A stretch of DNA of 64,000 bases from Elusimicrobiota bacterium (GTDB taxonomy: Bacteria; Elusimicrobiota; Elusimicrobia; 2-01-FULL-59-12). How positions within the stretch are numbered: the stretch's first letter is position 1; each line of letters starts with the position of its first letter. Below are positions 7,261 through 62,804 of the stretch, piece by piece. Both the position numbers and the translations under genes were made by a program. The notes under the pieces are model-generated. The model was not told the origin of the DNA and ran no database searches. It saw only the letters and a program-made list of their open reading frames with translations. The DNA lies in contig JBAZWU010000004.1 of assembly GCA_041660185.1 (NCBI GenBank), forward strand, positions 96,878 to 160,877, written 5' to 3'.

Positions 7261-7331
7261 GTCATCCCCCGCGGGTTCTGGCGGGGGATCTATGCATCAA
7301 TGATGGATCCGCCAGACGTCTGGCGGATGAC
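7261..7331. repeat. MITE-like element, family 4 (GTCATCCCC...GGGGATGAC terminal inverted repeats with two internal hairpins)
   Basis: The terminal inverted repeats and internal hairpins are visible. Its end lies within 10 nt of the NlpC/P60 start codon and contains the GGAG Shine-Dalgarno. Confidence 0.75.
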
Positions 7332-7460
7332 GACTGTACGACTCTCTTATAGCATGAGTCTTGAGCGCCTGTCACTTTCCTCCAGCCCGTTGACAAGCCC
7401 CAGAAAGTCTGCTATATATATAATCAGCAATACAAACAATATATACCACTGACTATTAGA

Positions 7461-7955
7461 ATGAAACCTCGACGATTGACGATCAACCCTTCCCAGCCGG
7501 TATCGGACCCGCTCCTTCCGCGGGGGCTGATGGCGCGCATCGGGTATTTGCTGAACCGGCCGGCGCTGCAGATCCGCCAGAGGGCGCAGGGGATCCTGTC
7601 GCCGATGGGGCTGATCCCTCCTCATGTGGCTGTTTTGTCGACTCTGCATACCGAAGGGCCTCTGACCCAGCGGGCCCTGGGGCAATGGTTGAAGATCGAT
7701 CCCACCACCATGGTGTGGTTGATCGACGCTCTCGAAAAGAAAGGAGTGGTTCGCCGGGACGCGCATCCCCAAGACCGCCGGGCCTATCTGATCAAGCTGA
7801 CGCCTTCGGGAGAGGCTCTTTTCCGCCAGGCCAACAAGCAGCTGGACCAGATGGACAAGGAATTTTTAGCGCCGTTATCGAAAAACGAGCAAGGCGATCT
7901 TCGGCGGTTGCTCATCAAGCTGTTTCGAAATTTGACCACACAGGGGTTTAAATGA
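7461..7955 (+). CDS. MarR-family transcriptional regulator
   Basis: wHTH region (LSTLHTEGPLTQRALGQWLKIDPTTMVWLIDALEKKGVVRRDAHPQDRR). Confidence 0.8.
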   Translation: MKPRRLTINPSQPVSDPLLPRGLMARIGYLLNRPALQIRQRAQGILSPMGLIPPHVAVLSTLHTEGPLTQRALGQWLKIDPTTMVWLIDALEKKGVVRRDAHPQDRRAYLIKLTPSGEALFRQANKQLDQMDKEFLAPLSKNEQGDLRRLLIKLFRNLTTQGFK

Positions 7956-7987
7956 AACGCCGAAAAGATGAAGGCCGCAACATCTCT

Positions 7988-8093
7988 ACCCTCACCCCGA
8001 CCCTCCCCCTCAACAGGGGGAGGGAGCCGATAGAGCGGAAGTCGTTCCTTCTCCCTGTTGAGGGAGAAGGTGGCCGGAGGCCGGATGAGGGGC
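7988..8093. repeat. MITE-like element, family 3 (ACCCTCACCCC... TIR), copy A with a degenerate right end
   Basis: The left arm matches the copies at 29471 and 32977, including the hairpins CCCTCCCC-loop-GGGGAGGG and CCCTCTCCC-TGTTGA-GGGAGAAGG. Confidence 0.65.
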
Positions 8094-8116
8094 GATACCC
8101 AGTCATTGTTTTTATT

Positions 8117-9430: not shown

Positions 9431-9447
9431 TTTAAAGGAGTTTAATT

Positions 9448-10215: not shown

Positions 10216-10221
10216 GATGTC

Positions 10222-14094: not shown

Positions 14095-14288
14095 GGAGGG
14101 AGCCGCCCTGGATTTCCGACCCGTGGCGTGCGGTTTCTTTTTCGGCGATTCGGCTCAGACCGCCCGCGAACTCGTGGAATGCTCCTGGAGTTCGCCTTTG
14201 GCGACCGAGCCAGCGCGGGCGTAAAGCGTCTTCGCCGAATCGCTTGAAACCGCAAGGCCACTCTCGTAAACCCAGGGCGGCTCCCTCC
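14094..14288. repeat. long-hairpin element, family LH, copy 2
   Basis: The core aligns to 5015-5199. The terminal arms differ (GGGAGCCGCCCTGG / CCAGGGCGGCTCCC) but still pair. The internal stem also carries compensatory changes (GATTCGGC/GCCGAATC versus GTCTCGGC/GCCGAGAC). Confidence 0.75.
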
Positions 14289-14308
14289 TCTTGAAGATAT
14301 ATGCATCC

Positions 14309-14504
14309 GGAGACCCAGGGAGGGGTCTGCTGGAGGCGACCCTCTGAGGCGCGACGGACCGGACCCGAGGTTATTGACCGGCGATGGCTGGTTCACCGAA
14401 GGTGAACTAAAAAGGGTATTCCCCTAGTTTCGCCGGGCTTCGGGTCCGGGACGGCGATAAACGCCGAAGCCTAGTCGCCGGAAGAAGGCCCCTCCCTGGG
14501 TCTC
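14309..14504 (+). ncRNA. candidate structured RNA or unique long-hairpin element (about 196 nt, closed by a perfect 17-bp stem)
   Basis: GGAGACCCAGGGAGGGG at 14309 pairs perfectly with CCCCTCCCTGGGTCTCC at 14488. Internal nested stems (CCGGACCCGA/TCGGGTCCGG, GTTCACC/GGTGAAC) give an extended imperfect hairpin. No second copy is present in the window. 6S RNA is one hypothesis. Confidence 0.3.
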
Positions 14505-14570
14505 CGGAAACGCTCCTTGCCAATGGTGAAGGGCGAAGAACCGGAATAGATTTGCTATAAAGGAAGCGGC

Positions 14571-15209
14571 ATGATTATTACGATTCTCTCTGACGCGGAA
14601 AGCTGGAAAAACGCCTACATCCCGGAACTGATTCACGATTTAAAAGCGCGGAAGCATCGCGTGCGATGGGTTCATCGCGCGGCAGATGTTCCACTTGGCG
14701 AACTGGCCTTTATTCTTGGATTTTTCCAGATCGTTCCCTCAAAAGTCCTCTCCCGGAATAAGCACAATCTGGTTGTCCACGAAAGTCGGTTGCCCAAAGG
14801 CCGGGGATGGTCTCCTATGACTTGGCAAGTGCTCGAAGGGTCTAACCGGATTCACCTGACGCTTTTTGAAGCGGTGGAAAAAGTGGACGCCGGGACCGTC
14901 TATCTGCGTGGAGAGGTTCCGCTCAAAGGGCATGAGCTCCTGGTGGAAATCCGCGAAAAGACCATTCGGGAAATGCTGCGGCTCTGCCGGACGTTTGTGA
15001 AACAATACCCGGCCCTGATCGCTCGCGGGAAGCCTCAGACAGGCCGGCCAACTTTTTACGCGCGGCGAAAAGCCTCTGACAGCCGGCTGGACCCCCGGAA
15101 ATCCATTGAAAAGCAGTTCAATCTTCTCCGCATGGTCGATAACGAAAGTTACCCGGCCTTCTTCGAACTCAAAGGCCACACCTACCGCCTCAAAATCGAA
15201 AAGAAATAA
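14571..15209 (+). CDS. formyltransferase-family protein (N-terminal formyl-transferase domain only)
   Basis: HESRLPKGRGWSP matches the HxSLLPxxRG formyltransferase catalytic motif. At 212 aa it lacks the Fmt C-terminal domain. Confidence 0.7.
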   Translation: MIITILSDAESWKNAYIPELIHDLKARKHRVRWVHRAADVPLGELAFILGFFQIVPSKVLSRNKHNLVVHESRLPKGRGWSPMTWQVLEGSNRIHLTLFEAVEKVDAGTVYLRGEVPLKGHELLVEIREKTIREMLRLCRTFVKQYPALIARGKPQTGRPTFYARRKASDSRLDPRKSIEKQFNLLRMVDNESYPAFFELKGHTYRLKIEKK

Positions 15210-15217
15210 TTGGATTC

Positions 15218-15241
15218 GTAGGGGCGCACCGCTGTGCGCCC
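15218..15241. repeat. REP family 1, single unit
   Basis: GTAGGGGCGCACCGCTGTGCGCCC lies immediately after the formyltransferase stop. Confidence 0.8.
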
Positions 15242-15909
15242 GCAGCTCTTGGTTTGCCCCGCGGTCTCTGGCGGCCCCGACCTCCCGTTGCCGTTTTGCT
15301 TGACGGGGCTGCACCGACTGTTTGACTCAACAGGTGGACGGTGCGGGGGGATCCATCAAGTGGTGCTCGGTGCGCCGCCCCGCACATCGCGCTCCAACCG
15401 GCCTGACAGCTCCGTCTTGTCCGCTCGAGCAGCCTGCGGAACTCAGCGCCAGAAGTCTGGCGCTTCAGACAGTCCTCGGCTGACCCGCTCTCGCTCCCAA
15501 GCCGCAGGCCTCACGTCGCGCTTCTGCGCAGGGCGGCCCCCTCGCAATAAAGATGATCCCTTTTGGGAACCACCGGCCGTTCTGTTGCGGGGGTCCGATT
15601 TTGACTTAACTGGTAGGTCGCCCTTACCGTTGGAGAACATACCGATTGTGACACGTTCGTACACCCTCCGAATGCCGAAGTATCATCACCGCCGATACGC
15701 CGCCGCCCTAACGGGCCGATAAACGGTGGTGTCGAACACCACACCAGCGGTGTGCTATCACCTGGATCCGCCATGATCTACGGAAAGACGATTTTACGTG
15801 AAATCACGTCGTTGATGGGCTCGCGTCGGAAATGGTGTAATCTTGACAGTTGTGTGTTGACCGGGAGGCGCTGGCGCGCTCTCGCGTAACCGTAGGAGGA
15901 TCAATAGCC

Positions 15910-16251
15910 ATGGATATCTTCCTGAGCCATAGTAACCACGCCGACGACTTGCCTCTGATTAATATGCTGTCATTGGCTTTTAAGGTGCTCGGAATCAATC
16001 TCCACGTTGTCGAACGAGCTCCGCGCCCCGGCAAAGCTATCGGAGAGAAGATCGTTCAGACAATGGACGCCTGCGACGAGGTGCTTGTCCTGTATACGAA
16101 TCATGCTCAGGGACGCCAAGATGTTGAGGCTGAAATCGGTTTGGCCAAGGCCAGCAGCAGGCCGGCTCCTCCCGTTTTCATTACGGAATTCCCGGCGAAT
16201 AAGCCAGCTCTCGTTCAGGGCTGTGAGGAGGGGGTGAGGGGACGGGGGTGA
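15910..16251 (+). CDS. standalone TIR-like (DUF1863/TIR_2-like) domain protein, about 113 aa
   Basis: Starts MDIFLSHSNHADD, then LVLYTNHAQ, a pattern typical of TIR-like folds. GGAGGA lies 8 nt upstream of the ATG. The track ORF starts earlier at 15850. Confidence 0.45.
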   Translation: MDIFLSHSNHADDLPLINMLSLAFKVLGINLHVVERAPRPGKAIGEKIVQTMDACDEVLVLYTNHAQGRQDVEAEIGLAKASSRPAPPVFITEFPANKPALVQGCEEGVRGRG

Positions 16252-16268
16252 GGGGACGTAGTTGCAGC
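16230..16268. repeat. REP family 2-like half element with an internal tandem duplication (GGGGGTGAGGGGACG x2, then AGGGGACGTAGTTGC)
   Basis: Matches the left arm of the family 2 elements at 48109, 56246 and 61638. Confidence 0.55.
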
Positions 16269-16380
16269 TTTGCATCTTCGATCGCTGCCCACCTGGTCAT
16301 CTGCCCGGCAATCACTCCCGCGCCAACAACCTAATTGCCTAAGAACGTCCCTGGTGTTCCCGTCAGATGGCGCCCGGAGA

Positions 16381-16931: not shown

Positions 16932-16932
16932 A

Positions 16933-25586: not shown

Positions 25587-25669
25587 GTCATTCCCGGCGG
25601 TCTCTGGCCGGGAATCCACCGTGCCGTATAACGATGATGGGTCCCCCGCCAGTGGCCGCGGGGGATGAC
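25587..25669. repeat. MITE-like element, family 4
   Basis: GTCATTCCC...GGGGATGAC terminal inverted repeats with two internal hairpins, lying between recO and glyQ. Confidence 0.75.
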
Positions 25670-28652: not shown

Positions 28653-29460
28653 CGTTTGGCTTATCTTTTCCAACATCGTTTTGCCGATGGGCGCCGGCCT
28701 TACCTTTTTTGCGTTAGCCCGCTACGCGTCGCATGTCGCTCCGATGCGGTTTCTGGTGACGGGAGATACCACGTACCGTGGCGCGGCCTGGGGGTTCTTC
28801 TTTTTCGGAGTTTATTTGATCAGCCGTCCCCTGCAGGTTCTGCTGGGTCCTCTTCCGATGCCTTCCGTGGTTACCTGTATCCGGGAATTCTGCATGATGG
28901 GGATTTTCGCTCCCGCCATCTTTGTGGCGATGATGAGCCTCTGCTTCGGGAGCGAGAATATCCCGCGCAAACTGATCGTCTGGATCTTTGGAGTGGGACT
29001 GGTGCTGGGGTTCTCCTATGTGGTCCTCGAGCCGCAGGCGATTCGCGGCTCCGAGATCATCTTCTGGATCGGCAATTATCCGGCCTACGACGGGACCTGG
29101 TTTCTGAACGGGGACCCGCGCAGCCAGGCCCTGATTTCGATTATTTATGTGATCCAGTTCATTGATCCGGTTCTTCTGCTGTTCCTGGCCGGGGTCATTG
29201 TTTTCCGGCACGCCCGGCATTACCCGCCCGCGAAAAAGGTGGTGTATGACAACATGCCGAAAAAACTCTACCTGCTTTCCGCCGCGGTTTTTGCCTTTCC
29301 CATGGGCATGTTTATCGCCGGTGTTTTGGGCCTTTTCTTTCACATCCGTTTCCAATGGTGGCTCTACTATCTGGGTGCCCTGATCTCCGGGTTAATCGAA
29401 TCGGTGAGCCTCAGCCTTCCTCTGCGGAAAGATGTTCAAGTCAGCGAACACGCCCGATAA
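28645..29460 (+). CDS. hypothetical integral membrane protein
   Basis: About 8 hydrophobic segments. No recognisable motif. Confidence 0.6.
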   Translation: MHDVWLIFSNIVLPMGAGLTFFALARYASHVAPMRFLVTGDTTYRGAAWGFFFFGVYLISRPLQVLLGPLPMPSVVTCIREFCMMGIFAPAIFVAMMSLCFGSENIPRKLIVWIFGVGLVLGFSYVVLEPQAIRGSEIIFWIGNYPAYDGTWFLNGDPRSQALISIIYVIQFIDPVLLLFLAGVIVFRHARHYPPAKKVVYDNMPKKLYLLSAAVFAFPMGMFIAGVLGLFFHIRFQWWLYYLGALISGLIESVSLSLPLRKDVQVSEHAR

Positions 29461-29470
29461 CATCAGACAA

Positions 29471-29585
29471 ACCCTCACCCCAACCCTCTCCCTCAGCAGG
29501 GAGAGGGGGGATGATATTTTCTGACGCTCCCTCCCCCTGTTGAGGGGGAGAGCCGGCCTGCCGACCGGCAGGCAGGGGTGAGGGT
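29471..29585. repeat. MITE-like element, family 3, complete copy
   Basis: ACCCTCACCCC... / ...GGGGTGAGGGT terminal inverted repeats with internal hairpins. Confidence 0.75.
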
Positions 29586-31779: not shown

Positions 31780-32961
31780 ATGACGGATCACCTTTCCATC
31801 GTTTGTTCCCATTGCAAAAAGCCGCTGGCGGAGGAGGCCAATTTCTGCCACCTCTGCGGGGCGCCCACCGGCACCGCCAGCTGGCAGACCACGGACGGTC
31901 AAACCAACTTTGTTCAAGGGCTCCTGAATCTCGCCCGGGGCCTGACCTCGACGCTGGATGTCGATGCGCTCCTGAAACGGATCGGTCAATCCGCTGAACA
32001 CATGTTTTTGTGCGAAGCGTCTGCCCTCATGCTGCTGGATGAAGACAAGGGCCATCTTTACTTCAAAGTGGCGACCGGAGAAAAGGGCGGCGTGGTGACC
32101 CGTTTCCGCGTGAAAGTCGGGGAGGGAATCGCCGGATGGGTCGCCGAAAAACGGGAACCCGTCATGATTAACGACGTGAAATCCGATACGCGGTTCTCCG
32201 GGCAGTTCGACCAGGCATCCGGTTTTATCACCCGGTCGGTGCTCTGCGTTCCCATGCTCGCGGCCGGAGAGCTTGTCGGGGTTCTGGAAATCCTGAACAA
32301 GAAAGATCCCGCCGGTTTCTCCGAAGCGGACCGCAGCCTTTTGGAGAGTCTGGCCGGACTGGCGGCCCTGGCGATCGCCAACGCCAGGCTTCTAGGAGGG
32401 TTTCGTAATTTCTACAGCAACATGATCGAAATTCTGATCAGCGCCATTGAGGCGCGGGACGCCCGGATGGCGGGCCATTGCTGGCGGGTGGCCCAGCGGG
32501 CCAGCTCCCTCGGGCGGCGTCTGGGGCTGGAGGGGCAGGTCCTGAAAGATCTTTATTATTCGGCCCTGCTGCATGACATCGGGTTCTTAAAGGTTGCCGG
32601 CAGCTGGAATATGGCGCGCATCCTGGTCATGGAAAGCCCGCATATGGAGCAGACGCATCCCCTGATCGGCGCTGAAATGATTCGAGGGATCGATATCCTG
32701 AAAGGCGCCGCCGCCTTGATCCCTTTTCATCATGAATGTTATGACGGATCCGGTTCCCCGCGGGGGCTCCGGAACGACGATATCCCTTTAGGCGGTCACA
32801 TCCTGTCGGTCATTGAACACTGCGAAGAGATGCGCATGAACGGTTATTCCGTCGAGCAGGTCTTGGCGGCGCTGGAAGAGAAATCCGGGAAAGAATTCCA
32901 TCCGGAGGTGGCGCAAGCTTACCGGGACGTCCTGAGCGCCGAAGAAGCCAAGCCGATATAA
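31780..32961 (+). CDS. zinc-ribbon–GAF–HD-GYP signalling protein (likely c-di-GMP phosphodiesterase)
   Basis: N-terminal CSHCKK...CHLCG, a GAF domain, then the HD-GYP-like stretch HDIGF...HHECYDGSGSPRGL. Confidence 0.7.
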   Translation: MTDHLSIVCSHCKKPLAEEANFCHLCGAPTGTASWQTTDGQTNFVQGLLNLARGLTSTLDVDALLKRIGQSAEHMFLCEASALMLLDEDKGHLYFKVATGEKGGVVTRFRVKVGEGIAGWVAEKREPVMINDVKSDTRFSGQFDQASGFITRSVLCVPMLAAGELVGVLEILNKKDPAGFSEADRSLLESLAGLAALAIANARLLGGFRNFYSNMIEILISAIEARDARMAGHCWRVAQRASSLGRRLGLEGQVLKDLYYSALLHDIGFLKVAGSWNMARILVMESPHMEQTHPLIGAEMIRGIDILKGAAALIPFHHECYDGSGSPRGLRNDDIPLGGHILSVIEHCEEMRMNGYSVEQVLAALEEKSGKEFHPEVAQAYRDVLSAEEAKPI

Positions 32962-32976
32962 TTTTACCCTCACCCC

Positions 32977-33066
32977 AGCCCTCCCCCTCCGCAGGGGGAG
33001 GGAGCATCAGATTCTTTACAGCCATCATCCCCTCTCCCTGTTGAGGGAGAGGGTCAGGGTGAGGGT
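32977..33066. repeat. MITE-like element, family 3
   Basis: ACCCTCACCCCAGCCC / GGGTCAGGGTGAGGGT terminal inverted repeats. Confidence 0.75.
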
Positions 33067-33101: not shown

Positions 33102-33110
33102 TGGTATAAT
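33102..33110 (+). promoter_or_regulatory. extended -10 promoter element TGGTATAAT upstream of mdh
   Basis: TGnTATAAT is present. It places the family 4 hairpin at 33122-33153 inside the mdh 5' UTR. Confidence 0.4.
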
Positions 33111-33121: not shown

Positions 33122-33153
33122 GTCATCCCCCGCCAGAACCCGCGGGGGATGAC
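33122..33153. repeat. family 4 element, short single-hairpin form (GTCATCCCCCGCC...GCGGGGGATGAC)
   Basis: The same termini as the longer copies enclose one hairpin. Confidence 0.65.
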
Positions 33154-36021: not shown

Positions 36022-36160
36022 GTCATCCCCGAGTGACCCTGTCCCGTCACTTGTCGACGTTCTTGGTGGTCGGGACGGCCCCGACAATGTGACCTCACTA
36101 GAGGACGGGGCTGTCGGGGATCCATCCTTCGATTCCCCGCCAGAGACCGCGGGGAATGAC
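36022..36160. repeat. MITE-like element, family 4, long variant
   Basis: Starts 10 nt after the upstream stop codon. GTCATCCCC / GGGGAATGAC termini. Confidence 0.75.
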
Positions 36161-36284
36161 GATGTTTTTGTTAGGCCCCGGTTGCCAGACACTTGGCGAC
36201 CGGGGCTTTTACACCTTTTTACACTCAATCCTTTCCGTTGACATTTTCGCGATTCGGGGGTAAATAAAATCCGTTGCGAGGATT

Positions 36285-37982: not shown

Positions 37983-37994
37983 TCAACAGGATTT

Positions 37995-38073
37995 GTAGGG
38001 GCGGACCGCTGTCCGCCCGAATATTGGATTTCATGAGGGTCCTGAGGGCGGGCGCACATCGGTGCGCCCCGAC
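37995..38073. repeat. REP family 1 doublet with a compensated variant stem (GGGCGGAC...GTCCGCCC)
   Basis: Intercistronic, between the FecR-like gene and the beta-barrel gene. Confidence 0.8.
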
Positions 38074-38080
38074 ATTTCTC

Positions 38081-39259
38081 ATGATCATTTCATGTGCCTT
38101 CCCCGTTATGGCGGTTGAGGTGAAACCCGTCGTCAACGCCCAACTTCTGGGCGGCCAGTATTTCTACAACGGTTCAGACAATGCGTTTGGTGCGGTGGCA
38201 TCGCTTTCAGCGGCTCCTTATATGCAGTTTAACGATCGGTGGAGCCTGGTCCCGCTTTACAGCGGTTCCTATAAAGGGACCAAGCAAGTCACCGACCTGG
38301 TGGGCGGGGGAACCCTGTTCCAGGAATCACAGGACCATACCGGCTCGCTCAAAGCCATCCGGTCATTTGCCAATGGCCTCAAGCTCAAGGCGGTGGGCGC
38401 CTATGGCGCGGAATTCCTGCGAGAGACCGTCGACGAAAAGTGGGGGAAGGGTCTTTATGATAACCGCCGCCTTTCGGGTGGAGCAGAGAGCGAGTGGTCC
38501 TGGGATAAAGAACGGTATGTCCGGTTGGCCTATGACTATTACACGATTCGATTTCCAAACTACGCCAGCCTGGAATCCCAGGGATCGTCGATGGGATTAG
38601 GCCGGGAGCTCAATGCCCCCGACGTGCTGGACAATAAGAACCATGCGCTGACTCTTGGAGGCCAGGCCGGCCTTCCCGGCAATGGATTTGCGGAGGCGGC
38701 GTTCAGCCAGACCTGGCGCCGTTTCGGTTCCCAGCACCTCGTGGACCTCTCGGGCGATCTGATTTCCGAGCTTCGCGGCGATCAGATCCAGACCGCTTCT
38801 CTCCAGGGAACCTGGCCCGTTTTACTGGATTCCAATTTGAAACTCTTTACGAGCGTTGGCTACAGCCGGAGCCGTGTTTATTCGAATCAGAACCACTACG
38901 ATGCGCAAAAGGTGGTATTTAACCCCAATTACTATGCCTATATCCAGCAGTCGATCTCAAACCAATGGACCTTGGCGGTCGGCGAGGATCCTTGGACGAT
39001 CGGCTTGAACTGGACGGTGTCCCGTCAAAAATATGCGGACCGGTTGACCCAGGATGCGTTGGGAAATTATGAAACGGGTCGCACGCGTGTCGATGGGGCC
39101 AGTATCGGTTTGCAGTTTGCCTATCCGATTGCGGCGGGGTTCCGGCTAAACGCCTTGACTCAACTGGGGTGGAGCGACTCCAACAATCACAACAACCAGG
39201 TCTATCAGTACCACTACAACACCCAGACCTATTTGATGGGATTCAGCTATGCCTATTAA
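38081..39259 (+). CDS. outer-membrane beta-barrel protein
   Basis: Signal peptide MIISCAFPVMA, C-terminal GFSYAY aromatic terminus. The track start at 37979 translates the REP. Confidence 0.6.
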   Translation: MIISCAFPVMAVEVKPVVNAQLLGGQYFYNGSDNAFGAVASLSAAPYMQFNDRWSLVPLYSGSYKGTKQVTDLVGGGTLFQESQDHTGSLKAIRSFANGLKLKAVGAYGAEFLRETVDEKWGKGLYDNRRLSGGAESEWSWDKERYVRLAYDYYTIRFPNYASLESQGSSMGLGRELNAPDVLDNKNHALTLGGQAGLPGNGFAEAAFSQTWRRFGSQHLVDLSGDLISELRGDQIQTASLQGTWPVLLDSNLKLFTSVGYSRSRVYSNQNHYDAQKVVFNPNYYAYIQQSISNQWTLAVGEDPWTIGLNWTVSRQKYADRLTQDALGNYETGRTRVDGASIGLQFAYPIAAGFRLNALTQLGWSDSNNHNNQVYQYHYNTQTYLMGFSYAY

Positions 39260-45143: not shown

Positions 45144-45176
45144 TCAGGGGAATGGTATCGGCCATCCATCGGATTT

Positions 45177-45240
45177 GTAGGGGCGCACCGCCTGTGCGCC
45201 CGCCATTGGATTGTCCGGGCGGACAGCGGTCCGCCCCTAC
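45177..45240. repeat. REP family 1 doublet
   Basis: Lies between the giant-protein stop and the PorV-like start. Confidence 0.8.
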
Positions 45241-45247
45241 AGTTCTC

Positions 45248-48108: not shown

Positions 48109-48139
48109 TAGGGGCTAGGGGACGTAGTTGCCTTGTTGC
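48109..48139. repeat. REP family 2 arm (TAGGGGCTAGGGGACGTAGTTGCC), left flank of the transposase
   Basis: Inverted relative to the arm at 49182-49207. Confidence 0.75.
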
Positions 48140-48178
48140 TTTCCCAGCGAATAAATCCACCCTAAAGCTATCTAAGAA

Positions 48179-49189
48179 GTGATGCCTCGCCAGCCCCGAA
48201 TCGAATCCCCTGGCCTTCTCTGCCACGTCATCGTTCGCGGCATTGAACGCCGCTGCATATTTCCTGCGGCTAACGATTATGGTGATTTCGTTGCGCGTAT
48301 GGCTCGTCTCTTTGGTCAAACCCGGACACCTTGCTTCGCCTGGGCACTCATGCCTAACCATATACATTTGCTTCTCATGATGGGGCTAACCAAGATCTCC
48401 AAGGTCATGCAACGCCTTCTGACCGGGTATGCGGTCAATTTCAATATTCGCTATCAGCGCACCGGGCATCTCTTCCAAAACCGCTATAAATCCATTCTCT
48501 GCAAGGAGGAAACATATTTCTTGAGACTTGTCCGCTACATTCATTTGAACCCCGTTCGGGCCGGACTTGTTAGGACTCCTCAAGACTTAGCTTCTTACCC
48601 TTGGACCGGACACGCCGCTGTTCTGGAAACCCAAAGGAATTCTTGGCAGGATGTGAATGGGGTTTTGGGGCGATTTGGTTCAAACAGAGCCACTGCCATA
48701 GCTGGCTATGAACGGTTCGTCTTGGAAGGGTGGGAGGAACCTCACCGGGATGAACTGGAAGGCGGTGGACTCCTTCGGAGCCTGGGTGGTGTGGGGGGTG
48801 CCTTAGCAGCGGCTCGGGATAACAACCGACAGATGTCAGACGTTCGCGTTTTAGGTGACGGTGACTTTGTCGAAGAAGTACTTCGGCAAGCCGATATCAG
48901 GGATCAAGCGAATAACGGATTCAAGGCCGTTTCGTTGGAGATGCTAATGCAAAAGATCGCAAAAGAGTTCAAAATCGATGCGCGGACGATTCAACTAAAG
49001 CGTCGGGAACGGAAAATTTCCAAGGCAAAGTCCATACTTATATTTGCAGCCGTGGAATGGCTTGGAAAACCATTGAAAGAAATAGCTGCTTTGACAAAAA
49101 TGTCAGCAGGTTGTGCCAGCCGGGCCATGCGCCGCGGTCAGGTGCTGGCGGAACAACTCAGCTTGGCAGCTGGATTCAAAAGGCAATAA
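48179..49189 (+). CDS. REP-associated tyrosine transposase (RAYT; IS200/IS605-like Y1 HUH) fused to a DnaA-C-like HTH domain
   Basis: HUH motif MPNHIHLL, a catalytic-Tyr region (QNRYKS) and the family N-terminus (LCHVIVRG...). The C-terminal KSILIFAAVEWLGKPLKEIAALTKMS resembles DnaA domain IV. The stop codon lies inside the right REP. Confidence 0.8.
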   Translation: MMPRQPRIESPGLLCHVIVRGIERRCIFPAANDYGDFVARMARLFGQTRTPCFAWALMPNHIHLLLMMGLTKISKVMQRLLTGYAVNFNIRYQRTGHLFQNRYKSILCKEETYFLRLVRYIHLNPVRAGLVRTPQDLASYPWTGHAAVLETQRNSWQDVNGVLGRFGSNRATAIAGYERFVLEGWEEPHRDELEGGGLLRSLGGVGGALAAARDNNRQMSDVRVLGDGDFVEEVLRQADIRDQANNGFKAVSLEMLMQKIAKEFKIDARTIQLKRRERKISKAKSILIFAAVEWLGKPLKEIAALTKMSAGCASRAMRRGQVLAEQLSLAAGFKRQ

Positions 49190-49207
49190 GGCAACTACGT
49201 CCCCTAC
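49182..49207. repeat. REP family 2 arm (GGCAATAAGGCAACTACGTCCCCTAC), right flank of the transposase
   Basis: Reverse complement of the left-arm consensus. Confidence 0.75.
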
Positions 49208-49345
49208 GCCCTTCGTTCAAGTTGAGCCCTTCTCCCCAGAAGAAACGCATCTTAAATTCAGCACGATTCAATCATTTTTGTTCAAAATGGCGCCGAGGCG
49301 GTTTTTCCTTGAAAACTTCTCTTTGCGGGGGTAAGGGAGAACACA

Positions 49346-56249: not shown

Positions 56250-56339
56250 GGGACGTAGAAAGCATAGGGGACGTAGTTGCCTTATTGCCTTTTGTCGCCA
56301 ATAAGGTAAATAAGGCAATAAGGCAACTACGTCCCCTAT
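56246..56339. repeat. REP family 2, complete inverted pair (ATAGGGGACGTAG...CTACGTCCCCTAT) with a left-arm duplication
   Basis: Lies between the kinase stop and the stop of the minus-strand ATPase gene. Confidence 0.8.
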
Positions 56340-56343
56340 GACC

Positions 56344-57495
56344 TTAATTCAGAAGCTTGTTACTCCAGAGCTGTTCCATGAACACCTGCCAGGGCAGGAC
56401 CTCCACGGAACCGATGCGGCGAGGGGCGGGATCCCTGGAAACGACAATCTGGCGCTGAACAGAGTATTCTTCGGCGAAAGCTTTCAAGCCTCGCCAGTGA
56501 CGCTCATCCGCCAATTCCGTTGATTTAACTTCTACGGCGATTTGGGCGTCTCCAAGAATAAAATCGACTTCATACCCGGACGTGGTCCGCCAATACGACA
56601 GCGGATAACGCAAACCGGAATAGTGCGCATGCGCCCGGAGTTCCATCGCCATCCAATGTTCAAAAGCTTTGCCGAAGGCTTCGCTCCTTGGCTCGATGGT
56701 CCCACGACGCAACAGCGTATTGGCCAGTCCGACGTCGAAAAAGTAGAACTTGGAAGCCTGAACGGTACGGCGTTTGGGTCGTTTGAGATAGGCGGGTAAT
56801 TCCCAGCCGATCAGCGTGTCGTTCAAAATGTCGAAGTAGCTTCTGACCGTCGGAGCTGACACGCCGCAGTCGCGCGCCACATTGCTGTACTGGAGCGCCT
56901 CTCCACAGCTGAAGGCCGCGGCGTCCAGAAATCGCGAGAAGGCCGGCAGATTGCGCGTCAACGCCTCGGCCATGACTTCTTCTTTTAGATAGTCGCCGAC
57001 ATAAGCGTGCCAGCGCAAGCCCGCATCGTCCGCCAGATAATGCCGCGGCAGGAGCCCCTGATTCAGGGCCCGTTCAAGATTAAAATCAGGGATCTCCGGA
57101 TAAACCAGCGGGAACAGTTCGTAGCGGATCGCTCGCCCGCCCAACAGATTGGCGGCGCCGTGTTTCAGCTTTCGTGCGCTTGAACCGCAGAGGATGAACC
57201 GGATCCGCTCGTTGACAATAAGCCATTGCACTTCATCGAGAAGAGTTGGGAGCTTCTGTACTTCATCAATGATAACGATCCGCTCCCGACGCCGTGGATC
57301 AGCGAGTATATTCTCGCGAAGACTGGCGGGACGTCGGCTGAAATGCTCGAATTGATCAGACAATAGGAGGTCAACATAATTGGCATCCGGCAGAAGTCCG
57401 CGCAACAGAGTGCTTTTTCCTGTTTGGCGAGGGCCCCACAAGAAGCACGAATCGTTCGATATTTCAGGCAGATTTTGTATTCTTTTAAAATTCAT
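56344..57495 (-). CDS. AAA+ ATPase with a DUF4143-type C-terminal domain
   Basis: Walker A GPRQTGKST, Walker B VIIDEVQ, a restriction-endonuclease-like C-terminal region. Confidence 0.75.
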   Translation of the reverse strand: MNFKRIQNLPEISNDSCFLWGPRQTGKSTLLRGLLPDANYVDLLLSDQFEHFSRRPASLRENILADPRRRERIVIIDEVQKLPTLLDEVQWLIVNERIRFILCGSSARKLKHGAANLLGGRAIRYELFPLVYPEIPDFNLERALNQGLLPRHYLADDAGLRWHAYVGDYLKEEVMAEALTRNLPAFSRFLDAAAFSCGEALQYSNVARDCGVSAPTVRSYFDILNDTLIGWELPAYLKRPKRRTVQASKFYFFDVGLANTLLRRGTIEPRSEAFGKAFEHWMAMELRAHAHYSGLRYPLSYWRTTSGYEVDFILGDAQIAVEVKSTELADERHWRGLKAFAEEYSVQRQIVVSRDPAPRRIGSVEVLPWQVFMEQLWSNKLLN

Positions 57496-57584
57496 GAATA
57501 TGCAATATTCTGCTTTCGATATTCATGAATGTCAATAGCAAAATTTTAATTCGAATGCCGATGGAAAACGTACAATAATTATCT

Positions 57585-59645
57585 ATGCCGCGGGAGCCGA
57601 TGTTTGATGCCCATTTTGAGAAGTTCCTTGACTTAATTGATCAGGAACGGAAAGCCGAACAGGCTGAAAACGAGCGCAAGCTGGATTTGCTGCCGGTTCA
57701 GGCGCGTGAGGCGCTGGGCAAGGCCATCACCCGCCTGGTGGTGGTCCGCGAAGACTTCGGCGTCGGAGGGCATCCCTTATGGGTCCTCTCCCGCCCTTCC
57801 GCCGGAGAAGAATACTCCCCGTTCCAGGCGCTGAACCAAGGCGACCTGGTCAATCTCACCTTTGCAGAGAATCCCGAAAACCGGATCAAAGGCACGCTCT
57901 ACGATGTGGATCAATTCGAAGTCACCGTGGCGCTGAACGGCCCGATGCTGGATGAAGCGCCCAAGGGAAAATGTCAGCTCGATATCCTGGGAAGTGAAGC
58001 GACGTACAAGCGGATGAAGAAGGCGCTGAACACGGTGATGAGCGCCGACAAACCGTCTGTGGAACATCTCCGTGATGTTTTAATGGGAAAAGAGAAACCT
58101 TCCTATCAGGGATACGAAAGTATTTTCCCGTCATCCCCGAGTGTCTCTGTCGGGGATCCATCATGCCGTCTGACAGCCTGTCTGGATTCCCCGCCAGTGA
58201 CCGCGGGGAATGACGCAAGAGAAACGACCACAAGAGACGATGGAGGTGCTCCTCGCAATGACATCTCTTTCTTTAACCTCCGCCTGAATCCTTACCAGCG
58301 GGAAGCCGTTGAAAAAGCGCTGGCCGCGCAGGATGTCGCGGTGGTGCATGGCCCCCCCGGCACGGGAAAGACGACCGTCCTCGTGGAGATCGTCCAGCAG
58401 GCGGTGGCCCGCGGCGCGCGTGTGCTGGCTTCGGCCCCGAGCAATATCGCGGTGGATAACCTGCTGGAGAAGCTGCTGGACACCGGCTTACGGGTGGTCC
58501 GGATGGGACATCCGGCGCGCATTCTGGATTCTCTGCGGCATGCCACGCTCTCGGCTCTGGTGACCGAACATGATGATCAGCGCCACATTCAGGAATTGGA
58601 CCAGCAGCGCGAGCGCCTGATCCGCCAGCTCCACCGCGGCCGCGGCATGGAATGGGCGGAGCGAAAGCAGATCCAGCGCGAGATCCAGGCGCTCTGGCAG
58701 GAGGCGCGAGACATCGAGTTCGGCATCGGCAAACAGATCCTGGCGCAGGCGGATGTCGTCCTGGCCACGCACGGCGGCATCGCCAAGCCGATCCTCAAAA
58801 AACCGTTCGATCTCCTGATCATGGATGAAGCGTCCCAGGCCACCGAACCCCTCTCGTGGATTCCCATTCTCCAGGCGAAGAAAGTCATCATCGCCGGCGA
58901 TCCGCTGCAGCTGCCTCCGACGATCTATTCCGAAGAGACCAAAAAACAGGGCCTGGGCGTGACCCTTATGGAGCGCCTCCAGAAAATCCTTCCGCCGGAG
59001 GGGCAGACGCTCTTGCGCATCCAGTACCGGATGCATGAAACCATCATGGGTTTTTCCTCCCGGCAGTTCTATGACGGGAAGCTGGAGGCCGACGACTCGG
59101 TGCGGCGGCACACCGCCTCCGAGATGCCGGATGTGACGACCAACGCGCTGACGCAGAACCCCCTGATGTTCGTGGACACCGCGGGCGCCGGCTACGAAGA
59201 GTCCTGGAATGAACTGCTCGAGAGCCGTGAAAACGAGGGCGAAGCGAAACTCGCGCTCTATTTGTATCAGCAGCTGCGCGAAAGCGGGATCGTAGCCCGG
59301 GCCATGGCGCTGCTCACGCCGTATGTGGCGCAGGCGCGTTTGTTGCGGAACCTCGTCGGCCCTGACCGTTCGATCGAGATCGGCAGCATCGACGGCTTCC
59401 AGGGGCGCGAAAAGGAAGTAGTGATCCTGTCGCTGGTCCGGAGCAACCACCGCGGGGAAGTCGGTTTTCTCGGCGACACGCGGCGCATGAACGTGGGCAT
59501 GACGCGCGCCCGGCGCCTGCTGATCGTCCTAGGGGACTCCACGACCCTGGCCCGGCACCCGTTTTATAACCAGTTCATCGAATACGCCGATGCCCACGAG
59601 GCCCATCATTCCGCCTGGGAATGGATAAACGAAGCGCGGTTTTGA
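57585..59645 (+). CDS. superfamily 1 (Upf1/DNA2/IGHMBP2-like) helicase carrying an in-frame family 4 MITE insertion
   Basis: Motifs LNPYQREAV, GPPGTGKT, DEASQ, GDPLQLPP, QYRMHETI, GFQGREK. Residues SPSVSVGDPSCRLTACLDSPPVTAGND are the translation of the repeat. Confidence 0.8.
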   Translation: MPREPMFDAHFEKFLDLIDQERKAEQAENERKLDLLPVQAREALGKAITRLVVVREDFGVGGHPLWVLSRPSAGEEYSPFQALNQGDLVNLTFAENPENRIKGTLYDVDQFEVTVALNGPMLDEAPKGKCQLDILGSEATYKRMKKALNTVMSADKPSVEHLRDVLMGKEKPSYQGYESIFPSSPSVSVGDPSCRLTACLDSPPVTAGNDARETTTRDDGGAPRNDISFFNLRLNPYQREAVEKALAAQDVAVVHGPPGTGKTTVLVEIVQQAVARGARVLASAPSNIAVDNLLEKLLDTGLRVVRMGHPARILDSLRHATLSALVTEHDDQRHIQELDQQRERLIRQLHRGRGMEWAERKQIQREIQALWQEARDIEFGIGKQILAQADVVLATHGGIAKPILKKPFDLLIMDEASQATEPLSWIPILQAKKVIIAGDPLQLPPTIYSEETKKQGLGVTLMERLQKILPPEGQTLLRIQYRMHETIMGFSSRQFYDGKLEADDSVRRHTASEMPDVTTNALTQNPLMFVDTAGAGYEESWNELLESRENEGEAKLALYLYQQLRESGIVARAMALLTPYVAQARLLRNLVGPDRSIEIGSIDGFQGREKEVVILSLVRSNHRGEVGFLGDTRRMNVGMTRARRLLIVLGDSTTLARHPFYNQFIEYADAHEAHHSAWEWINEARF
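58130..58214. repeat. MITE-like element, family 4, located inside the helicase ORF
   Basis: GTCATCCCC...GGGGAATGAC with the same internal hairpins as the intergenic copies. Only the gene frame is free of stop codons. Confidence 0.8.
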
Positions 59646-59758
59646 TAGGATAGCAACGCTCAAATGCCCTTCGACTTCGCTCAGGGCTATGGTGAGTGGA
59701 GCCCTTCGACAGGCTCAGGGTGCTGAGCGAAAGTCGAAGCACAAAGCGGAATCGAACC

Positions 59759-61099
59759 ATGCCGAAAACATTCATCCTCGACACGAACGTCCTCATCCAC
59801 GATCCGGAAGCTCTATTTACATTTGAAGGCAGTACCGTTGTTATCCCGCTCACGGTTGTTGAAGAGCTGGACGGTTTAAAGCGGGGACACGATACCCGCA
59901 GCCGGAACGCCCGCTCAGTGTCCCGTTACTTGAACGATCTCCGCCAGCACGGCAAGCTGTCCGAAGGAGTTCCGCTCGAACATGGAGGGCGTCTGCGGGT
60001 CGAAGTGGCCGCGCACGCCGCTCTTCCTCCGCTTTTTGCTGATCACTCAAAGGACAACTCCATTTTGGGAACCGCGCTGGCCCTGTCGCAAAAGGGCGAA
60101 AGCGTTGTTTTCATCACCAAGGACATCAACCTGCGCATCAAGGCCGAAGCCATCGGCCTGACCGCCGAAGATTACGAAAAAGAAAAAGTCTCTCCGGACC
60201 AGCTCTACTCCGGGTGGCGGGACCTGCTGGTCCCCTCGTCTCAGATCGATCAATTTTTCAAAACCAAACGCCTGGACCCGCCTCCCTTGAAGCCGGTGCC
60301 GGGATCACCGGACGGCACCGTGGTGAAGTGGATGCCCAATGAAATGGCGATTTTGCACAGCCAGGAGGGGGATTCGCAAAGCGCTTTGGTCCGATACGAC
60401 GCCAAGACCCAGAAAATGCTTCCACTGCTTCATGCCAATGCCAAGCCGTGGGGGCTCAAGCCCCAGAACACCGAGCAGAAGTTCGCGCTGGAGCTTCTCC
60501 TGGATCCCAAGGTGGAGCTGGTATCCCTCGTGGGGGTCCCCGGAGCCGGCAAAACGCTTCTAGCCCTGGCCGCGGCTCTGGAGCAGATCCTGACGGAAAA
60601 AACCTACCGCCGGCTGCTCGTGGCGCGGCCGGTGATCGCGGTCGGGCAGGATATCGGTTTTCTCCCCGGCACGAAAGAAGATAAGCTGGAAAGCTGGATG
60701 GGGGCCATCTACGACAACCTGAATTTCCTCATGGACAATCCCGACAACCCGGGGACGGCTGACGAGGAAGAAGGATCGTTGTTTGAATCCGGCAAGATTG
60801 TGGTGGAAGCGGTAACGTTTATGCGGGGCCGCAGCCTGCCGAACCAGTTCATCATCATCGACGATGCCCAGAACCTGACGCCCCACGAAATGAAGACGGT
60901 CATCTCCCGCGTCGGCCAGGGATCCAAGATCGTGGTGACCGGAGATCCCTATCAGATCGACAATCCCTACCTGGATTCGGCGTCCACGGGGCTGGCGAAC
61001 CTGGTTGAAAAATTCAAAGGCCAGCTCGTTTACGGCCACATGACCTTCTCGAAGATTGAGCGCAGCACGCTGGCGGCGCTGGCCTCCGATTTGTTGTAG
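59759..61099 (+). CDS. PIN-domain–PhoH-like ATPase (YlaK/PhoH2-type)
   Basis: N-terminal PIN (ILDTNVLIHD...), Walker A GVPGAGKTLLA, a PhoH C-terminal region. The stop codon TAG is the GTAG of the downstream REP. Confidence 0.8.
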   Translation: MPKTFILDTNVLIHDPEALFTFEGSTVVIPLTVVEELDGLKRGHDTRSRNARSVSRYLNDLRQHGKLSEGVPLEHGGRLRVEVAAHAALPPLFADHSKDNSILGTALALSQKGESVVFITKDINLRIKAEAIGLTAEDYEKEKVSPDQLYSGWRDLLVPSSQIDQFFKTKRLDPPPLKPVPGSPDGTVVKWMPNEMAILHSQEGDSQSALVRYDAKTQKMLPLLHANAKPWGLKPQNTEQKFALELLLDPKVELVSLVGVPGAGKTLLALAAALEQILTEKTYRRLLVARPVIAVGQDIGFLPGTKEDKLESWMGAIYDNLNFLMDNPDNPGTADEEEGSLFESGKIVVEAVTFMRGRSLPNQFIIIDDAQNLTPHEMKTVISRVGQGSKIVVTGDPYQIDNPYLDSASTGLANLVEKFKGQLVYGHMTFSKIERSTLAALASDLL

Positions 61100-61211
61100 G
61101 GGCGCACCGCTGTGCGCCCGCCCATCCAATTCAGTGTGAATACCCTAACATCATTCTGCTCCGATGTTTTCATCTAACGTCTTGATCGGGCGCACAGCGG
61201 TGCGCCCCTAC
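61096..61211. repeat. REP family 1 doublet (68-bp spacer)
   Basis: GTAGGGGCGCACCGCTGTGCGCCC ... GGGCGCACAGCGGTGCGCCCCTAC. Confidence 0.85.
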
Positions 61212-62663
61212 ATTCTCACGTTGATCGTCCTGGGAATCGGCACCTTCCTCCGCTTCCATGCCCTGGACCGTCAAAGCCTCTGGGACGATGAGATGTCCAC
61301 GCTCCAGACGATCTCAACCCCTCGGAGTGAGTTGATTCATCGTTTCCAGACCTACGAAATCCACCCGCCGCTGTATTTCTTTCAGATGAAGCTCTGGCAA
61401 AAAGCCGGGGCACGCTCGCTGGTCAATTTCCGCGCCAACTCGGCTTGCTGGGGCACGCTGTCCCTGCTTTTGATCTTCCTTCTGGGGCGCCGTTACGGCG
61501 GGCCCTGGGCCGGTTTGTGGGCGAGCGCCTATGCGGCTTTTTCACCCTATCACTTGTCCTACAGCCAGGAAATCCGTCCGTATGCGTTGGCCATCGTGAT
61601 CGCGTTGGCTGCGCTGTTAGTCTTGGAACAAGTGGTTATAGGGGACGTAGTTGCCTTTTTGCCTTATTGGCGAAAAAAAACAATAAGGCAAAAAGGCAAC
61701 TACGTCCCCTATGTTCCCTATGTTTCTTTATGGGTGATCCTTACGATCCTCTGGACCGCCCAGTTTTTCACGCATTACTGGGGCGCCTTTGTAGTATCCG
61801 CGCAAGCCCTCTATGCCTGGACGCGGCTGCTGGAGCGCCCGGCACGGATGCGGCTCCTCCGATCCGTGCTGATCGCGGGGGGATTGTTCTGCCTCTGGCT
61901 ACCGATTCTGTTGGCCCAGATGGAGGTTGTTCCAGCGCTGTCTTTCTGGGTGCCTCGCTTTTCATTCGCCAGTCTTTTGCAAACGTTCGGGGCGTTCAGC
62001 GGAATCTACTTTAATATGGCCTCCAGCACGTTTTACCTGCCCACGGTTACCGGCATTTTTGCTCTGCTGGCGCTGGCGCACGGCTTGGCGCTCGTGCACG
62101 GGCTTCGCCGCGGTCCCTCCGCGTTACGGTACTGGCTGTGTGTCGGACTGGCGATTCCCTGCCTGATCAGTCTCTGGAAACCAGCCATTTTTCTCTGGTA
62201 CCGCTACACGTTCCATCTGTACCCGGCTTTTTGCCTCCTGTTGGTTCTGGGGGCCTTGCGATGGCGGCCGCGCGCTCTGGGGATTCTGCTGCTCGCCACC
62301 TGCCTGGGGACGCAACTCTGGGGAAGCGCGATCTATTTTACCCGGTGGCAGAAGGCCAACCCGAAAGCGGTTGTTTCCTATATCCACTGGCTCCGGCAGC
62401 CGGAATCGATCGTGGTCCGGCCTTTTTACTTTGCCAGGCTTTTTCAGTTTTATGACCAGGGGACCCTTCCGGTCATCGACCAGCACCTGCTGGACAGCGT
62501 GGAGAAGCGCGCGGCGCTGAAGGGGAAGAAGATCATCCTGGTCGCTTTTAATGTCCCGTATGACCCGGTGACGGACGCCCTGCTCAGTGAATTTAAGGTG
62601 GTCTCCGCGCAAAATTTCCCGGGCCTGGCGCGTCTGGGGATCACCGTCTATCAGCTGGAATAG
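61164..62663 (+). CDS. GT39/GT83-like (ArnT/PMT-type) membrane glycosyltransferase-family protein carrying an in-frame REP family 2 insertion
   Basis: Multi-TM protein with an N-terminal DDE-type loop (RQSLWDDEMSTLQ). The track start at 61164 translates the REP1, so the true start is probably near 61216. The repeat element sits at 61638-61712. Confidence 0.6.
   Translation: MFSSNVLIGRTAVRPYILTLIVLGIGTFLRFHALDRQSLWDDEMSTLQTISTPRSELIHRFQTYEIHPPLYFFQMKLWQKAGARSLVNFRANSACWGTLSLLLIFLLGRRYGGPWAGLWASAYAAFSPYHLSYSQEIRPYALAIVIALAALLVLEQVVIGDVVAFLPYWRKKTIRQKGNYVPYVPYVSLWVILTILWTAQFFTHYWGAFVVSAQALYAWTRLLERPARMRLLRSVLIAGGLFCLWLPILLAQMEVVPALSFWVPRFSFASLLQTFGAFSGIYFNMASSTFYLPTVTGIFALLALAHGLALVHGLRRGPSALRYWLCVGLAIPCLISLWKPAIFLWYRYTFHLYPAFCLLLVLGALRWRPRALGILLLATCLGTQLWGSAIYFTRWQKANPKAVVSYIHWLRQPESIVVRPFYFARLFQFYDQGTLPVIDQHLLDSVEKRAALKGKKIILVAFNVPYDPVTDALLSEFKVVSAQNFPGLARLGITVYQLE
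61638..61712. repeat. REP family 2 complete inverted pair inside the GT39-like ORF (75 bp)
   Basis: ATAGGGGACGTAGTTGCCTTTTTGCC...GGCAACTACGTCCCCTAT. It is translated as VIGDVVAFLPYWRKKTIRQKGNYVPYV. Confidence 0.8.
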
Positions 62664-62708
62664 CGGGCCTGATCGACGCCGGAAGCGGGTATAATTAGTT
62701 TACAGCCC

Positions 62709-62804
62709 GTCATCCCCGGTCGTCACCCCCGAATGTCTCTGTCGGGGGTCTAAGCAGCCGTTACGTCAGGAGTAGATTCCCCGCCAACGACCGCGGGGAA
62801 TGAC
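62709..62804. repeat. MITE-like element, family 4
   Basis: Its right terminus GGGGAATGACAGAGG supplies the Shine-Dalgarno 5 nt before the ATG of the next gene. Confidence 0.75.

Follow-up and report, generated by a model that had tools for sequence, protein, structure and literature searches.

Six copies of a hairpin repeat in an Elusimicrobiota contig

The DNA analysed here is a stretch of 64,000 nt from Elusimicrobiota bacterium (assembly GCA_041660185.1, contig JBAZWU010000004.1, positions 96,878 to 160,877 of the forward strand; hereafter the window). It contains six copies (c1 to c6) of a GC-rich hairpin repeat, Family 4, built from left (L) and right (R) units. A first-pass annotation had placed these copies in the 5' untranslated regions (5' UTRs) of genes and had proposed that the element end forms or abuts the Shine-Dalgarno (SD) sequence. 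The copies and the features that adjoin them are listed below by position, strand and content.

7250-7260, minus strand: SD (7257-7260) and start codon (7250-7252) of the NlpC/P60 gene, GGAGAAAAATG, adjoining the R end of c1
7261-7334, minus strand: c1, two units: R at 7261-7294, L (GTC-GTCATCCGCCAGACGTCTGGCGGATCC) at the high end
7335-7351, minus strand: left flank of c1, where GTACAGTC, common to L151, a locus on another contig, overlaps the left end of the element (~7332-7339)
25587-25669, plus strand: c2, two units, in an operon spacer, 8 nt past the recO stop and 35 nt ahead of the glyQ start
33122-33153, plus strand: c3, a single unit with a 12-bp stem
36022-36160, plus strand: c4, two units, the L unit having a further insertion nested in its loop
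57600-59645, plus strand: SF1 helicase gene, IGHMBP2/Upf1-like, the host open reading frame (ORF) of c5 (NCBI MFA5975525.1, annotated as one protein)
58130-58214, plus strand: c5, two units, with the in-frame translation ...SSPSVSVGDPSCRLTACLDSPPVTAGND... within the SF1 helicase
62690-62708, plus strand: TATAAT (62690-62695) followed by TACAGCCC (62701-62708), directly 5' of c6
62709-62804, plus strand: c6, a truncated unit followed by an L unit and an R unit
62805-62816, plus strand: SD and start codon of the GNAT gene, AGAGGAAAAATG, adjoining the R end of c6

The six copies are not a product of chance. A 26-nt right-unit pattern, CCCCGCCANNNNCCGCGGGGRATGAC, matched all six copies exactly, with 0.00 matches expected from dinucleotide shuffles, and a generic unit pattern gave seven matches in the window against none expected. 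The positions given in the first-pass annotation hold, with c1 stated as 7261-7331, as do the sequences that it quoted for the two similar right-end contexts: ...GGGGAATGAC followed by AGAGGAAAAATGG ahead of GNAT (start at 62814), and ...GGGGGATGAC followed by GGAGAAAAATGAAC before the NlpC/P60 gene (start 7252, minus strand). Pfam confirmed the identities of both genes.

The surroundings of the copies differ. c1 occupies the divergent spacer between the NlpC/P60 (minus) and MarR (plus) genes, and its orientation is minus because its R unit lies at the low coordinate end; a -10-like TATAAG (7346-7351) is found 7 nt 5' of a TACAG at this copy. At c3, the previous stop is 160 nt away, an extended -10 box, TGGTATAAT (33102-33110), lies 11 nt 5' of the element, and the mdh ATG (33179) lies 25 nt 3' of it. 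c4 begins 10 nt past the stop of a DUF6588 gene and lies 223 nt ahead of the next predicted start, and a terminator-like hairpin with a T-run is visible by eye 3' of it, at ~36174-36210. c6 starts 45 nt past the stop of a PMT_2-like gene and ends 9 nt ahead of the GNAT start. Scans for -35/-10 and terminator consensus sequences at c1, c3, c4 and c6 called nothing, the -10-like boxes and the terminator-like hairpin just described included.

Architecture and conservation of the unit

A scan of one genome per species yielded 41 loci, 40 of them in metagenome-assembled genomes (MAGs) of Elusimicrobiota and most in one fragmented MAG. Together with 125 copies on 120 metagenome contigs, the 59 copies of the window and the MAG loci made up a census of 184 copies. 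The consensus and the conserved positions were derived from 45 copies of a single MAG.

The unit is a GC-rich hairpin, CGTCAT-YCCC..loop..GGGR-ATCCAT, in which a (C)GTCAT flank is followed by a 7-9-bp GC-rich stem with a 4-9-nt loop and then by ATCCAT. A typical element of 62-139 nt consists of a forward unit, a spacer of 0-40 nt and an inverted unit; the consensus is CGTCATCCCCGAgtGcCtCTGTCGGGGATCCATC, the 0-40-nt spacer, and GATGGATYCCCCGCCAGnGACCGCGGGGRATGACG. Some copies, c3 among them, are single units, and c4 and two MAG copies carry extra palindromes nested within a loop. In the alignment of L units, G1, T2 and C3 are invariant and C29, on the 3' side of the stem, is conserved to at least 90%.

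Hairpin stems are maintained by compensatory change. The base that faces the R of GGGGRATGAC, a position that lay outside the search pattern, forms 89 C-G pairs, 85 T-A pairs and one T.G pair, and no non-pairs. Seven of the eight pairs of the L-unit stem show changes on both sides. Among these L-unit sequences, which had been pre-filtered for at least 7/8 pairs, the covariation score and the percentage paired were never reached by shuffles, and sliding the partners against each other made both collapse.

Conservation is confined to the element itself. From the second flanking base outward the information content is 0.3 bit or less, and the only conserved flanks are a G at +1 and a C at -1. As conservation stops 1 nt past each terminus, the family consensus contains no SD. 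Target-site duplications of 2-8 nt were at or below chance, and an Rfam scan of the whole window gave no match at the gathering score. Folded as RNA, the copies behave differently from one another: c1 forms a closed three-way structure that leaves its SD unpaired, c2 one long hairpin in which L pairs with R (z = -3.6), and c3 a very stable fold (z = -5.6), again with the SD unpaired; c6 is unexceptional compared with shuffles (z = -0.7).

Resemblance to Ssn-associated repeats and a nuclease gene between Family 4 units

The Neisseria Transformation Sequence (NTS; CGTCATTCCCGCGMAVGCGGGAATCYRG), also treated as dRS3, and the wider class of 'Ssn-related motifs' (SRM) have been described together with the nuclease SsnA (Nat Commun 2025;16:2388; PMC11893778). 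SsnA is a 94-aa single-domain GIY-YIG protein that binds the hairpin as single-stranded DNA (ssDNA) only, cuts a few nucleotides upstream of it, and does not act on RNA or double-stranded DNA; its key determinants are a three-base stretch that directly precedes the palindrome on the 5' side and the C that directly follows on the 3' side (PMC11893778). Family 4 shares with the NTS/SRM repeats the CGTCAT 5' flank, the YCCC...GGGR stem, the ATC 3' flank, a hairpin size of 20-50 nt and a high copy number per genome. Its invariant or near-invariant positions, the GTC of the oriented 5' flank (C)GTCAT and the C right 3' of the palindrome, are the positions reported to direct SsnA (PMC11893778). Family 4 differs in having longer stems and loops and in being mostly a fixed two-unit composite with distinct L and R units; its host phylum, Elusimicrobiota, is not named in the main text of PMC11893778, and Family 4 is known here from sequence.

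In Neisseria, ssnA is typically flanked by repeats, and the NTS-ssnA-NTS arrangement resembles an insertion sequence (PMC11893778). A matching arrangement was found on a metagenome contig, L081, which encodes a 97-aa single-domain GIY-YIG ORF (Pfam PF01541, E=1e-14). A Family 4 unit, CGTCATTCCCCGCGGTAGCTGGCGGGGAATCCAT, lies 50 nt upstream of this gene and an inverted copy of the unit lies downstream, similar to the inverted units that flank the ~95-aa single-domain GIY-YIG gene of Neisseria. This was the only such gene in the 1.0 Mb searched, the first 360 kb of the search having given none. Homologs of the L081 protein are ~96-aa 'GIY-YIG nuclease family proteins' from several phyla. Those from Elusimicrobia MAGs are 73-77% identical to it, and their genes are flanked by near-canonical NTS units with the flank CGTCATTCCCGCGAAGGCGG(G/A)AATCCAG. 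The protein hit no specific NCBIfam model, and a PDB sequence search returned no match.

Gammaproteobacteria-type MAGs (Sideroxydans, Sulfuricaulis, Ferrigenium) also encode proteins with 70-77% identity to that of L081 (P0216, P0228, P0271 and P0298, among others). This distribution suggests, from sequence similarity, that the nuclease gene has recently spread horizontally across phyla. A weak tblastn match in L033 was considered as an ssn pseudogene and rejected, being read as the reverse strand of an unrelated gene.

Placement of intergenic copies relative to starts and stops

The positions of the copies relative to genes were surveyed the genes being called by a simple finder that had learnt codon usage from the window. 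Family 4 occupies 17% of co-directional, 20% of divergent and 10% of convergent spacers, without enrichment in divergent ones, and in co-directional spacers 41 copies are sense and 42 antisense. Of the upstream stop and the downstream start, the stop is the nearer one for 60 intergenic copies and the start for 23 (p=6e-5). When the most upstream possible start was used for each gene, the preference persisted (56 vs 26, p=0.0012), the median distances being 11 nt for the stop and 24 nt for the start. The first-pass annotation had made its proposal depend on a positional bias relative to start codons; the survey shows no bias towards starts, and the copies lie nearer to stops.

A minority of copies do end close to a gene start: 23/133 intergenic copies (~17%) end 20 nt or less from one, with a cluster at 8-14 nt. 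Only 8 of these 23 have GGAG, GAGG or AGGA in the spacer. The GGGGGA of the element was considered as an SD and rejected on reading the sequences, as it lies 18-23 nt from the start codons. Among 131 intergenic copies, the frequencies of -10-like hexamers that read into the element are 6% and 11%, compared with a background of 4.8%, so that such boxes are not enriched. A T-run directly follows the R end in 13% of intergenic copies. Spacers that lack a copy have a median length of 12 nt. Since spacers are this tight and the spacing between SD and start must stay intact, an inserted element will often abut the SD, and we take the closeness to ribosome-binding sites to be mostly a by-product of tight gene spacing.

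For the six window copies, the 5'-UTR placement proposed at first therefore holds in part. c1, c3 and c6 lie in plausible leaders, but c2 is intercistronic, c4 follows a stop and c5 is coding. The placement of c3 between TGGTATAAT and the ATG at 33179 stands, without a promoter call to accompany it. The element end does abut the SD at c1 and c6, but not across the family, where conservation ends at the termini and an SD-like motif is found in 8/23 start-proximal copies. The 5'-UTR reading is wrong for the family and possibly right for a tiny subfamily made up of c1, c6 and L151.

One contig of the survey, L016 (JBGPLV010000184.1), begins within a Family 4 unit and has a coverage of 32x, compared with ~9x for its MAG. 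A repeat that collapsed in the assembly, or a contig end caused by the element, is a possible reason. The contig was considered as a mobile unit and rejected, its ORFs being read as a UvrD/AddA-like protein and a kinase.

Copies within genes, and filled and empty sites

A copy was scored as coding when it lay in-frame in a long ORF with a positive coding score on both sides. By this definition 38/184 copies (21%) are in-frame within ORFs, 12/59 in the window and MAG loci and 26/125 on the metagenome contigs. The translated frames give peptides rich in Ser, Pro, Gly and Ala. In the window, c5 accounts for an insertion of ~45 residues, 29 of them encoded by the element, in the linker of the SF1 helicase before motif Q, and the closest homologs lack this insertion in the alignment. 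Inserts in MAG proteins were located with Pfam: the MutS insert falls inside the envelope of the MutS_III domain, another splits an SQS_PSY domain into two stretches, and those of PriA, DnaX and alpha-2-macroglobulin lie between recognised domains.

Comparison of orthologous loci gave both filled and empty sites. mdh and coaX abut in the window and are separated by a 63-nt element in L096, and L072 has an element in a membrane-protein loop that lacks one in the window. In L088 (3740-3850, minus strand) an element stands in-frame in place of the last ~8 codons of glyQ, giving the tail SSPADSGRGPMGSPPVAAGNDAKKI before the stop codon, and the ATGA stop/start overlap of glyQ and glyS is kept; the copy that seems to precede the glyS start by 11 nt thus belongs to the coding sequence of glyQ, as its C-terminal end. 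The window and the 45-copy MAG have no orthologous loci in common. An empty-site comparison for the GNAT leader found a nearest relative that is only 63% identical and non-syntenic.

The helicase linker (~58100-58260) is an insertion hotspot. Other homologs (P0006, P0012, P0013, P0014, P0020, P0038) carry different repeat-derived peptides there, including VIPAKAGIQ from an NTS-type unit and PSPFSGEGGRRPGEG from another repeat family, and L106 has an independent 63-nt Family 4 copy in the linker. One 1284-aa ORF with two Family 4 copies is found on contig JBGPLV010000037.1 (L042 and L036, 6676-10527), and MutS, DnaX and PriA of the same MAG (L002, L019, L029) contain one copy each.

Insertions of this kind recall the Rickettsia palindromic elements (RPE), reportedly described by Ogata et al. 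in 2000. RPE, reviewed in PMC10969869, are similarly palindromic, inserted in-frame in genes including essential ones as short hydrophilic linker or loop peptides, and also intergenic. Family 4 shows the same in-frame palindromic insertion absent from homologs in the helicase, MutS, SQS_PSY, L072 and L088. It differs in phylum and in carrying the SRM signature, and its sequence is probably unrelated to the RPE-1 to RPE-8 families. Rickettsia is among the SRM-rich genomes (PMC11893778), and the RPE and SRM phenomena may be connected.

A small subfamily with common flanks

The right-end context common to c1 and c6 recurs outside the window. c1 and L151 agree in their left flank (GTACAGTC), in the spacer at the centre, in the R unit and in the right flank (GGAGAAAAATGAA), with 14/16 flank identity; their L hairpins differ, their downstream genes are unrelated, and they lie on different contigs (compared stretches: L151 740-830 and window 7250-7340). 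This pattern suggests a mosaic or recombinant origin of the copies. The 11-mer GGAGAAAAATG also follows the L151 copy. It occurs four times in 913 kb and coincides with starts only at the c1 and L151 genes (2/794 predicted starts). The flanks of c6, TACAGCCC...AGAGGAAAAATG, are similar to those of c1 and L151, and in all three copies a -10-like hexamer lies 4-7 nt upstream of TACAG. Given L151, the context common to c1 and c6 is, as judged from these sequences, not a coincidence. As a group of three copies (c1, L151 and, by similarity, c6), the subfamily may carry an SD and ATG of its own.

c1, L151 and probably c6 might then be a portable leader cassette, composed of a TACAG initiator region after a -10-like box, a hairpin pair and GGAGAAAAATG. 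Such a cassette may have been placed before unrelated NlpC/P60, CCA-adding-enzyme-like and GNAT genes in different genomes. We regard this reading as rather unlikely. If it is true, an Ssn-type repeat donates the ribosome-binding site and the start codon of host genes.

Weighing the explanations

On the reading proposed in the first-pass annotation, Family 4 would consist of selected RNA-level devices, 5'-UTR or intercistronic hairpins that stabilise mRNA or modulate translation and whose end supplies or positions the SD. In its favour, c1, c3 and c6 are each placed between a -10-like hexamer and a start codon; at c1 and c3 the SD is unpaired beside a very stable hairpin, SD-ATG flanks are common to c1, L151 and c6, and the ~17% of intergenic copies that end within 20 nt of a start cluster at 8-14 nt. 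Such devices would, however, not be expected to insert into coding sequence in 21% of cases, to lie nearer to stops than to starts in both tests, or to be used evenly in both orientations (41 vs 42). The -10-like boxes are not enriched, promoters are uncalled and Rfam is silent; conservation ends at the termini, most start-proximal copies lack an SD-like motif, and the L088 copy near the glyS start is glyQ coding sequence. We therefore consider an RNA-level device quite unlikely as an account of the family. The proximity to stops could instead point to a function at 3' ends, as intrinsic terminators, 3' mRNA stabilisers or sites of stop-proximal ribosome stalling, like the repetitive extragenic palindromic (REP) sequences of E. 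coli. The median of 11 nt to the upstream stop, the T-run after the R end in 13% of copies and the position of c4 10 nt past a stop fit this, but most copies sit in operon spacers, where termination would do harm, both orientations are used, 21% are coding, and the terminator scan called none at c1, c3, c4 and c6. As a primary explanation it is very unlikely; a 3'-end role could have arisen secondarily and does not conflict with a DNA-level origin of the repeats.

Two further explanations also place Family 4 at the DNA level and differ in the enzyme that they invoke. REP sequences and their composites (bacterial interspersed mosaic elements, BIMEs, and REPINs), mobilised by REP-associated tyrosine transposases (RAYTs; IS200/IS605-like Y1 transposases), similarly consist of short imperfect palindromes in inverted doublets without target-site duplication, at post-stop and intra-operon sites. 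Family 4 is mostly extragenic and stop-proximal, as in E. coli according to PMC12306157 (citing Liang et al. 2015), and a separate GTAG-headed REP-like family is present in the same window. The RAYT system also includes a small gene for a single-strand-hairpin-specific enzyme, flanked by repeats. In place of a GTAG-type head, however, Family 4 has the NTS/SRM signature CGTCAT...ATC; it has a substantial coding fraction, with 38/184 copies in-frame inside ORFs and so not extragenic; and the only enzyme gene found between its units, in work that included no RAYT-directed search, encodes a GIY-YIG protein and not a Y1 transposase. Similarly, no transposase was found among ten window ORFs scanned with Pfam, with no dedicated RAYT search. 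A RAYT-driven origin is, to our judgement, improbable. Classical MITEs (transposable elements of miniature size with inverted repeats), derived from insertion sequences with DDE transposases and bounded by terminal inverted repeats and target-site duplications, would account for the inverted repeats GTCATCCCC / GGGGATGAC, the small size, the many copies and the nested insertions. The Neisseria Correia elements and other MITEs that provide promoters or processing sites also resemble Family 4 as small inverted repeats co-transcribed with their neighbours, and c1, c6 and L151 have a Correia-like placement between a -10-like box and a start codon. Against a MITE, target-site duplications of 2-8 nt are absent, single-unit copies exist, no transposase was seen and the termini themselves belong to hairpin units; compared with Correia elements, Family 4 lacks a TA or other target duplication, evidence of an element-borne promoter or RNase III site, and a family-wide 5' bias. 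A MITE origin is highly improbable.

We conclude that Family 4 is probably, if by no means certainly, a set of Elusimicrobiota DNA hairpin repeats of the NTS / Ssn-related-motif type and not a 5'-UTR device. Several points weigh against this conclusion. The published SRM string, HGTCWYN(0-2)YYVSBRHN(0-5)WNVSBRGN(0-2)RNCYNB, has no match in the window, because, on reading by hand, the 8-9-bp stems and 8-9-nt loops are too long for it; a unit in L034, whose loop is short, matches the string. Neither the window, 64 kb of a 165-kb contig, nor the fragments of the 45-copy MAG yielded an ssn gene. The sole such gene between Family 4 units belongs to the unclassified metagenome contig L081, whose Elusimicrobiota origin we infer only from the taxonomic specificity of the pattern, and the assignment of its product to cd10448/Ssn is made from size, the Pfam GIY-YIG match and gene context only. 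NTS are in genes in 2% of cases in N. meningitidis (PMC11893778), compared with 21% coding for Family 4, and no mobility mechanism has been demonstrated for Ssn-type repeats. The SD-ATG flank common to c1 and L151 is left unexplained by a DNA-repeat model. As the SRM string is unmatched, membership is judged on design and gene context, and Family 4 is classed as a variant of Ssn-type repeats, one that shows RPE-like insertions in coding sequence, rather than as a textbook member.

As an Ssn-type variant, the Family 4 elements would derive from a repeat-ssn-repeat unit, as miniature forms without the gene. A cognate Ssn nuclease, or some other enzyme specific for hairpins, would spread or maintain them by way of ssDNA intermediates. 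Selection would leave copies only at sites where they do no harm: a few nucleotides past stops, at least ~8 nt upstream of starts, or in-frame in linkers and loops as Ser/Pro/Gly/Ala-rich peptides. The distance kept from starts would preserve the spacing between SD and start codon, and short spacers would automatically set element ends against the SD or start. Effects on mRNA, such as the 5' hairpin at c3, an intercistronic hairpin or an occasional terminator, would be side effects, with c1, c6 and L151 as a possible exception.

Other repeats in the window

Several further repeat families share the window with Family 4. The GTAG-headed REP-like family (GTAGGGGCGCACCGCTGTGCGCCCG, also GTAGGGGCGCACC...) is found at 219-335, 15205-15257, 37982-38085, 45164-45244 and 61095-61215, often as inverted pairs at gene boundaries, and is a candidate for a classic RAYT-type REP. 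A third family (ACCCTCACCCC..CCCTCCCCCTC..GGGGGAGGG..) is found at 7974-8071, 29457-29556 and 32952-33066, one copy lying just 5' of c3, and peptides related to it (PLPxGEG...) occur within ORFs of MAG loci. Long perfect palindromes of a fourth family (TAGGGGACGTAGTTGCCTT...AAGGCAACTACGTCCCCTA) follow genes at 16251-16278, 48110-48155, 49177-49219, 56253-56351 and 61634-61724. In addition, a direct repeat of ~110 nt with 88-91% identity links 5025-5134 and 14110-14218, and the intergenic region at 14.1-14.5 kb contains two large inverted-repeat structures (14095-14288 and 14306-14508).

Significance

The question posed by Family 4 moves from mRNA regulation to DNA-level repeat biology. The recently described partnership between Ssn nucleases and hairpin repeats would be extended to Elusimicrobiota, a largely uncultured phylum, by a variant that lies outside the published search motif, and current censuses probably undercount such repeats. 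Ssn-type repeats would also be linked to an RPE-like in-frame colonisation of essential genes (MutS, DnaX, PriA, GlyQ, the SF1 helicase), which gives rise to linkers rich in Ser, Pro and Gly and may make genes in MAGs harder to call. For the ssDNA-cutting toolbox that PMC11893778 proposes, the L081 nuclease together with its unit would be a ready candidate pair, and the flanks of c1 and L151 provide a concrete, searchable case with which to ask whether repeats can donate translation start signals.

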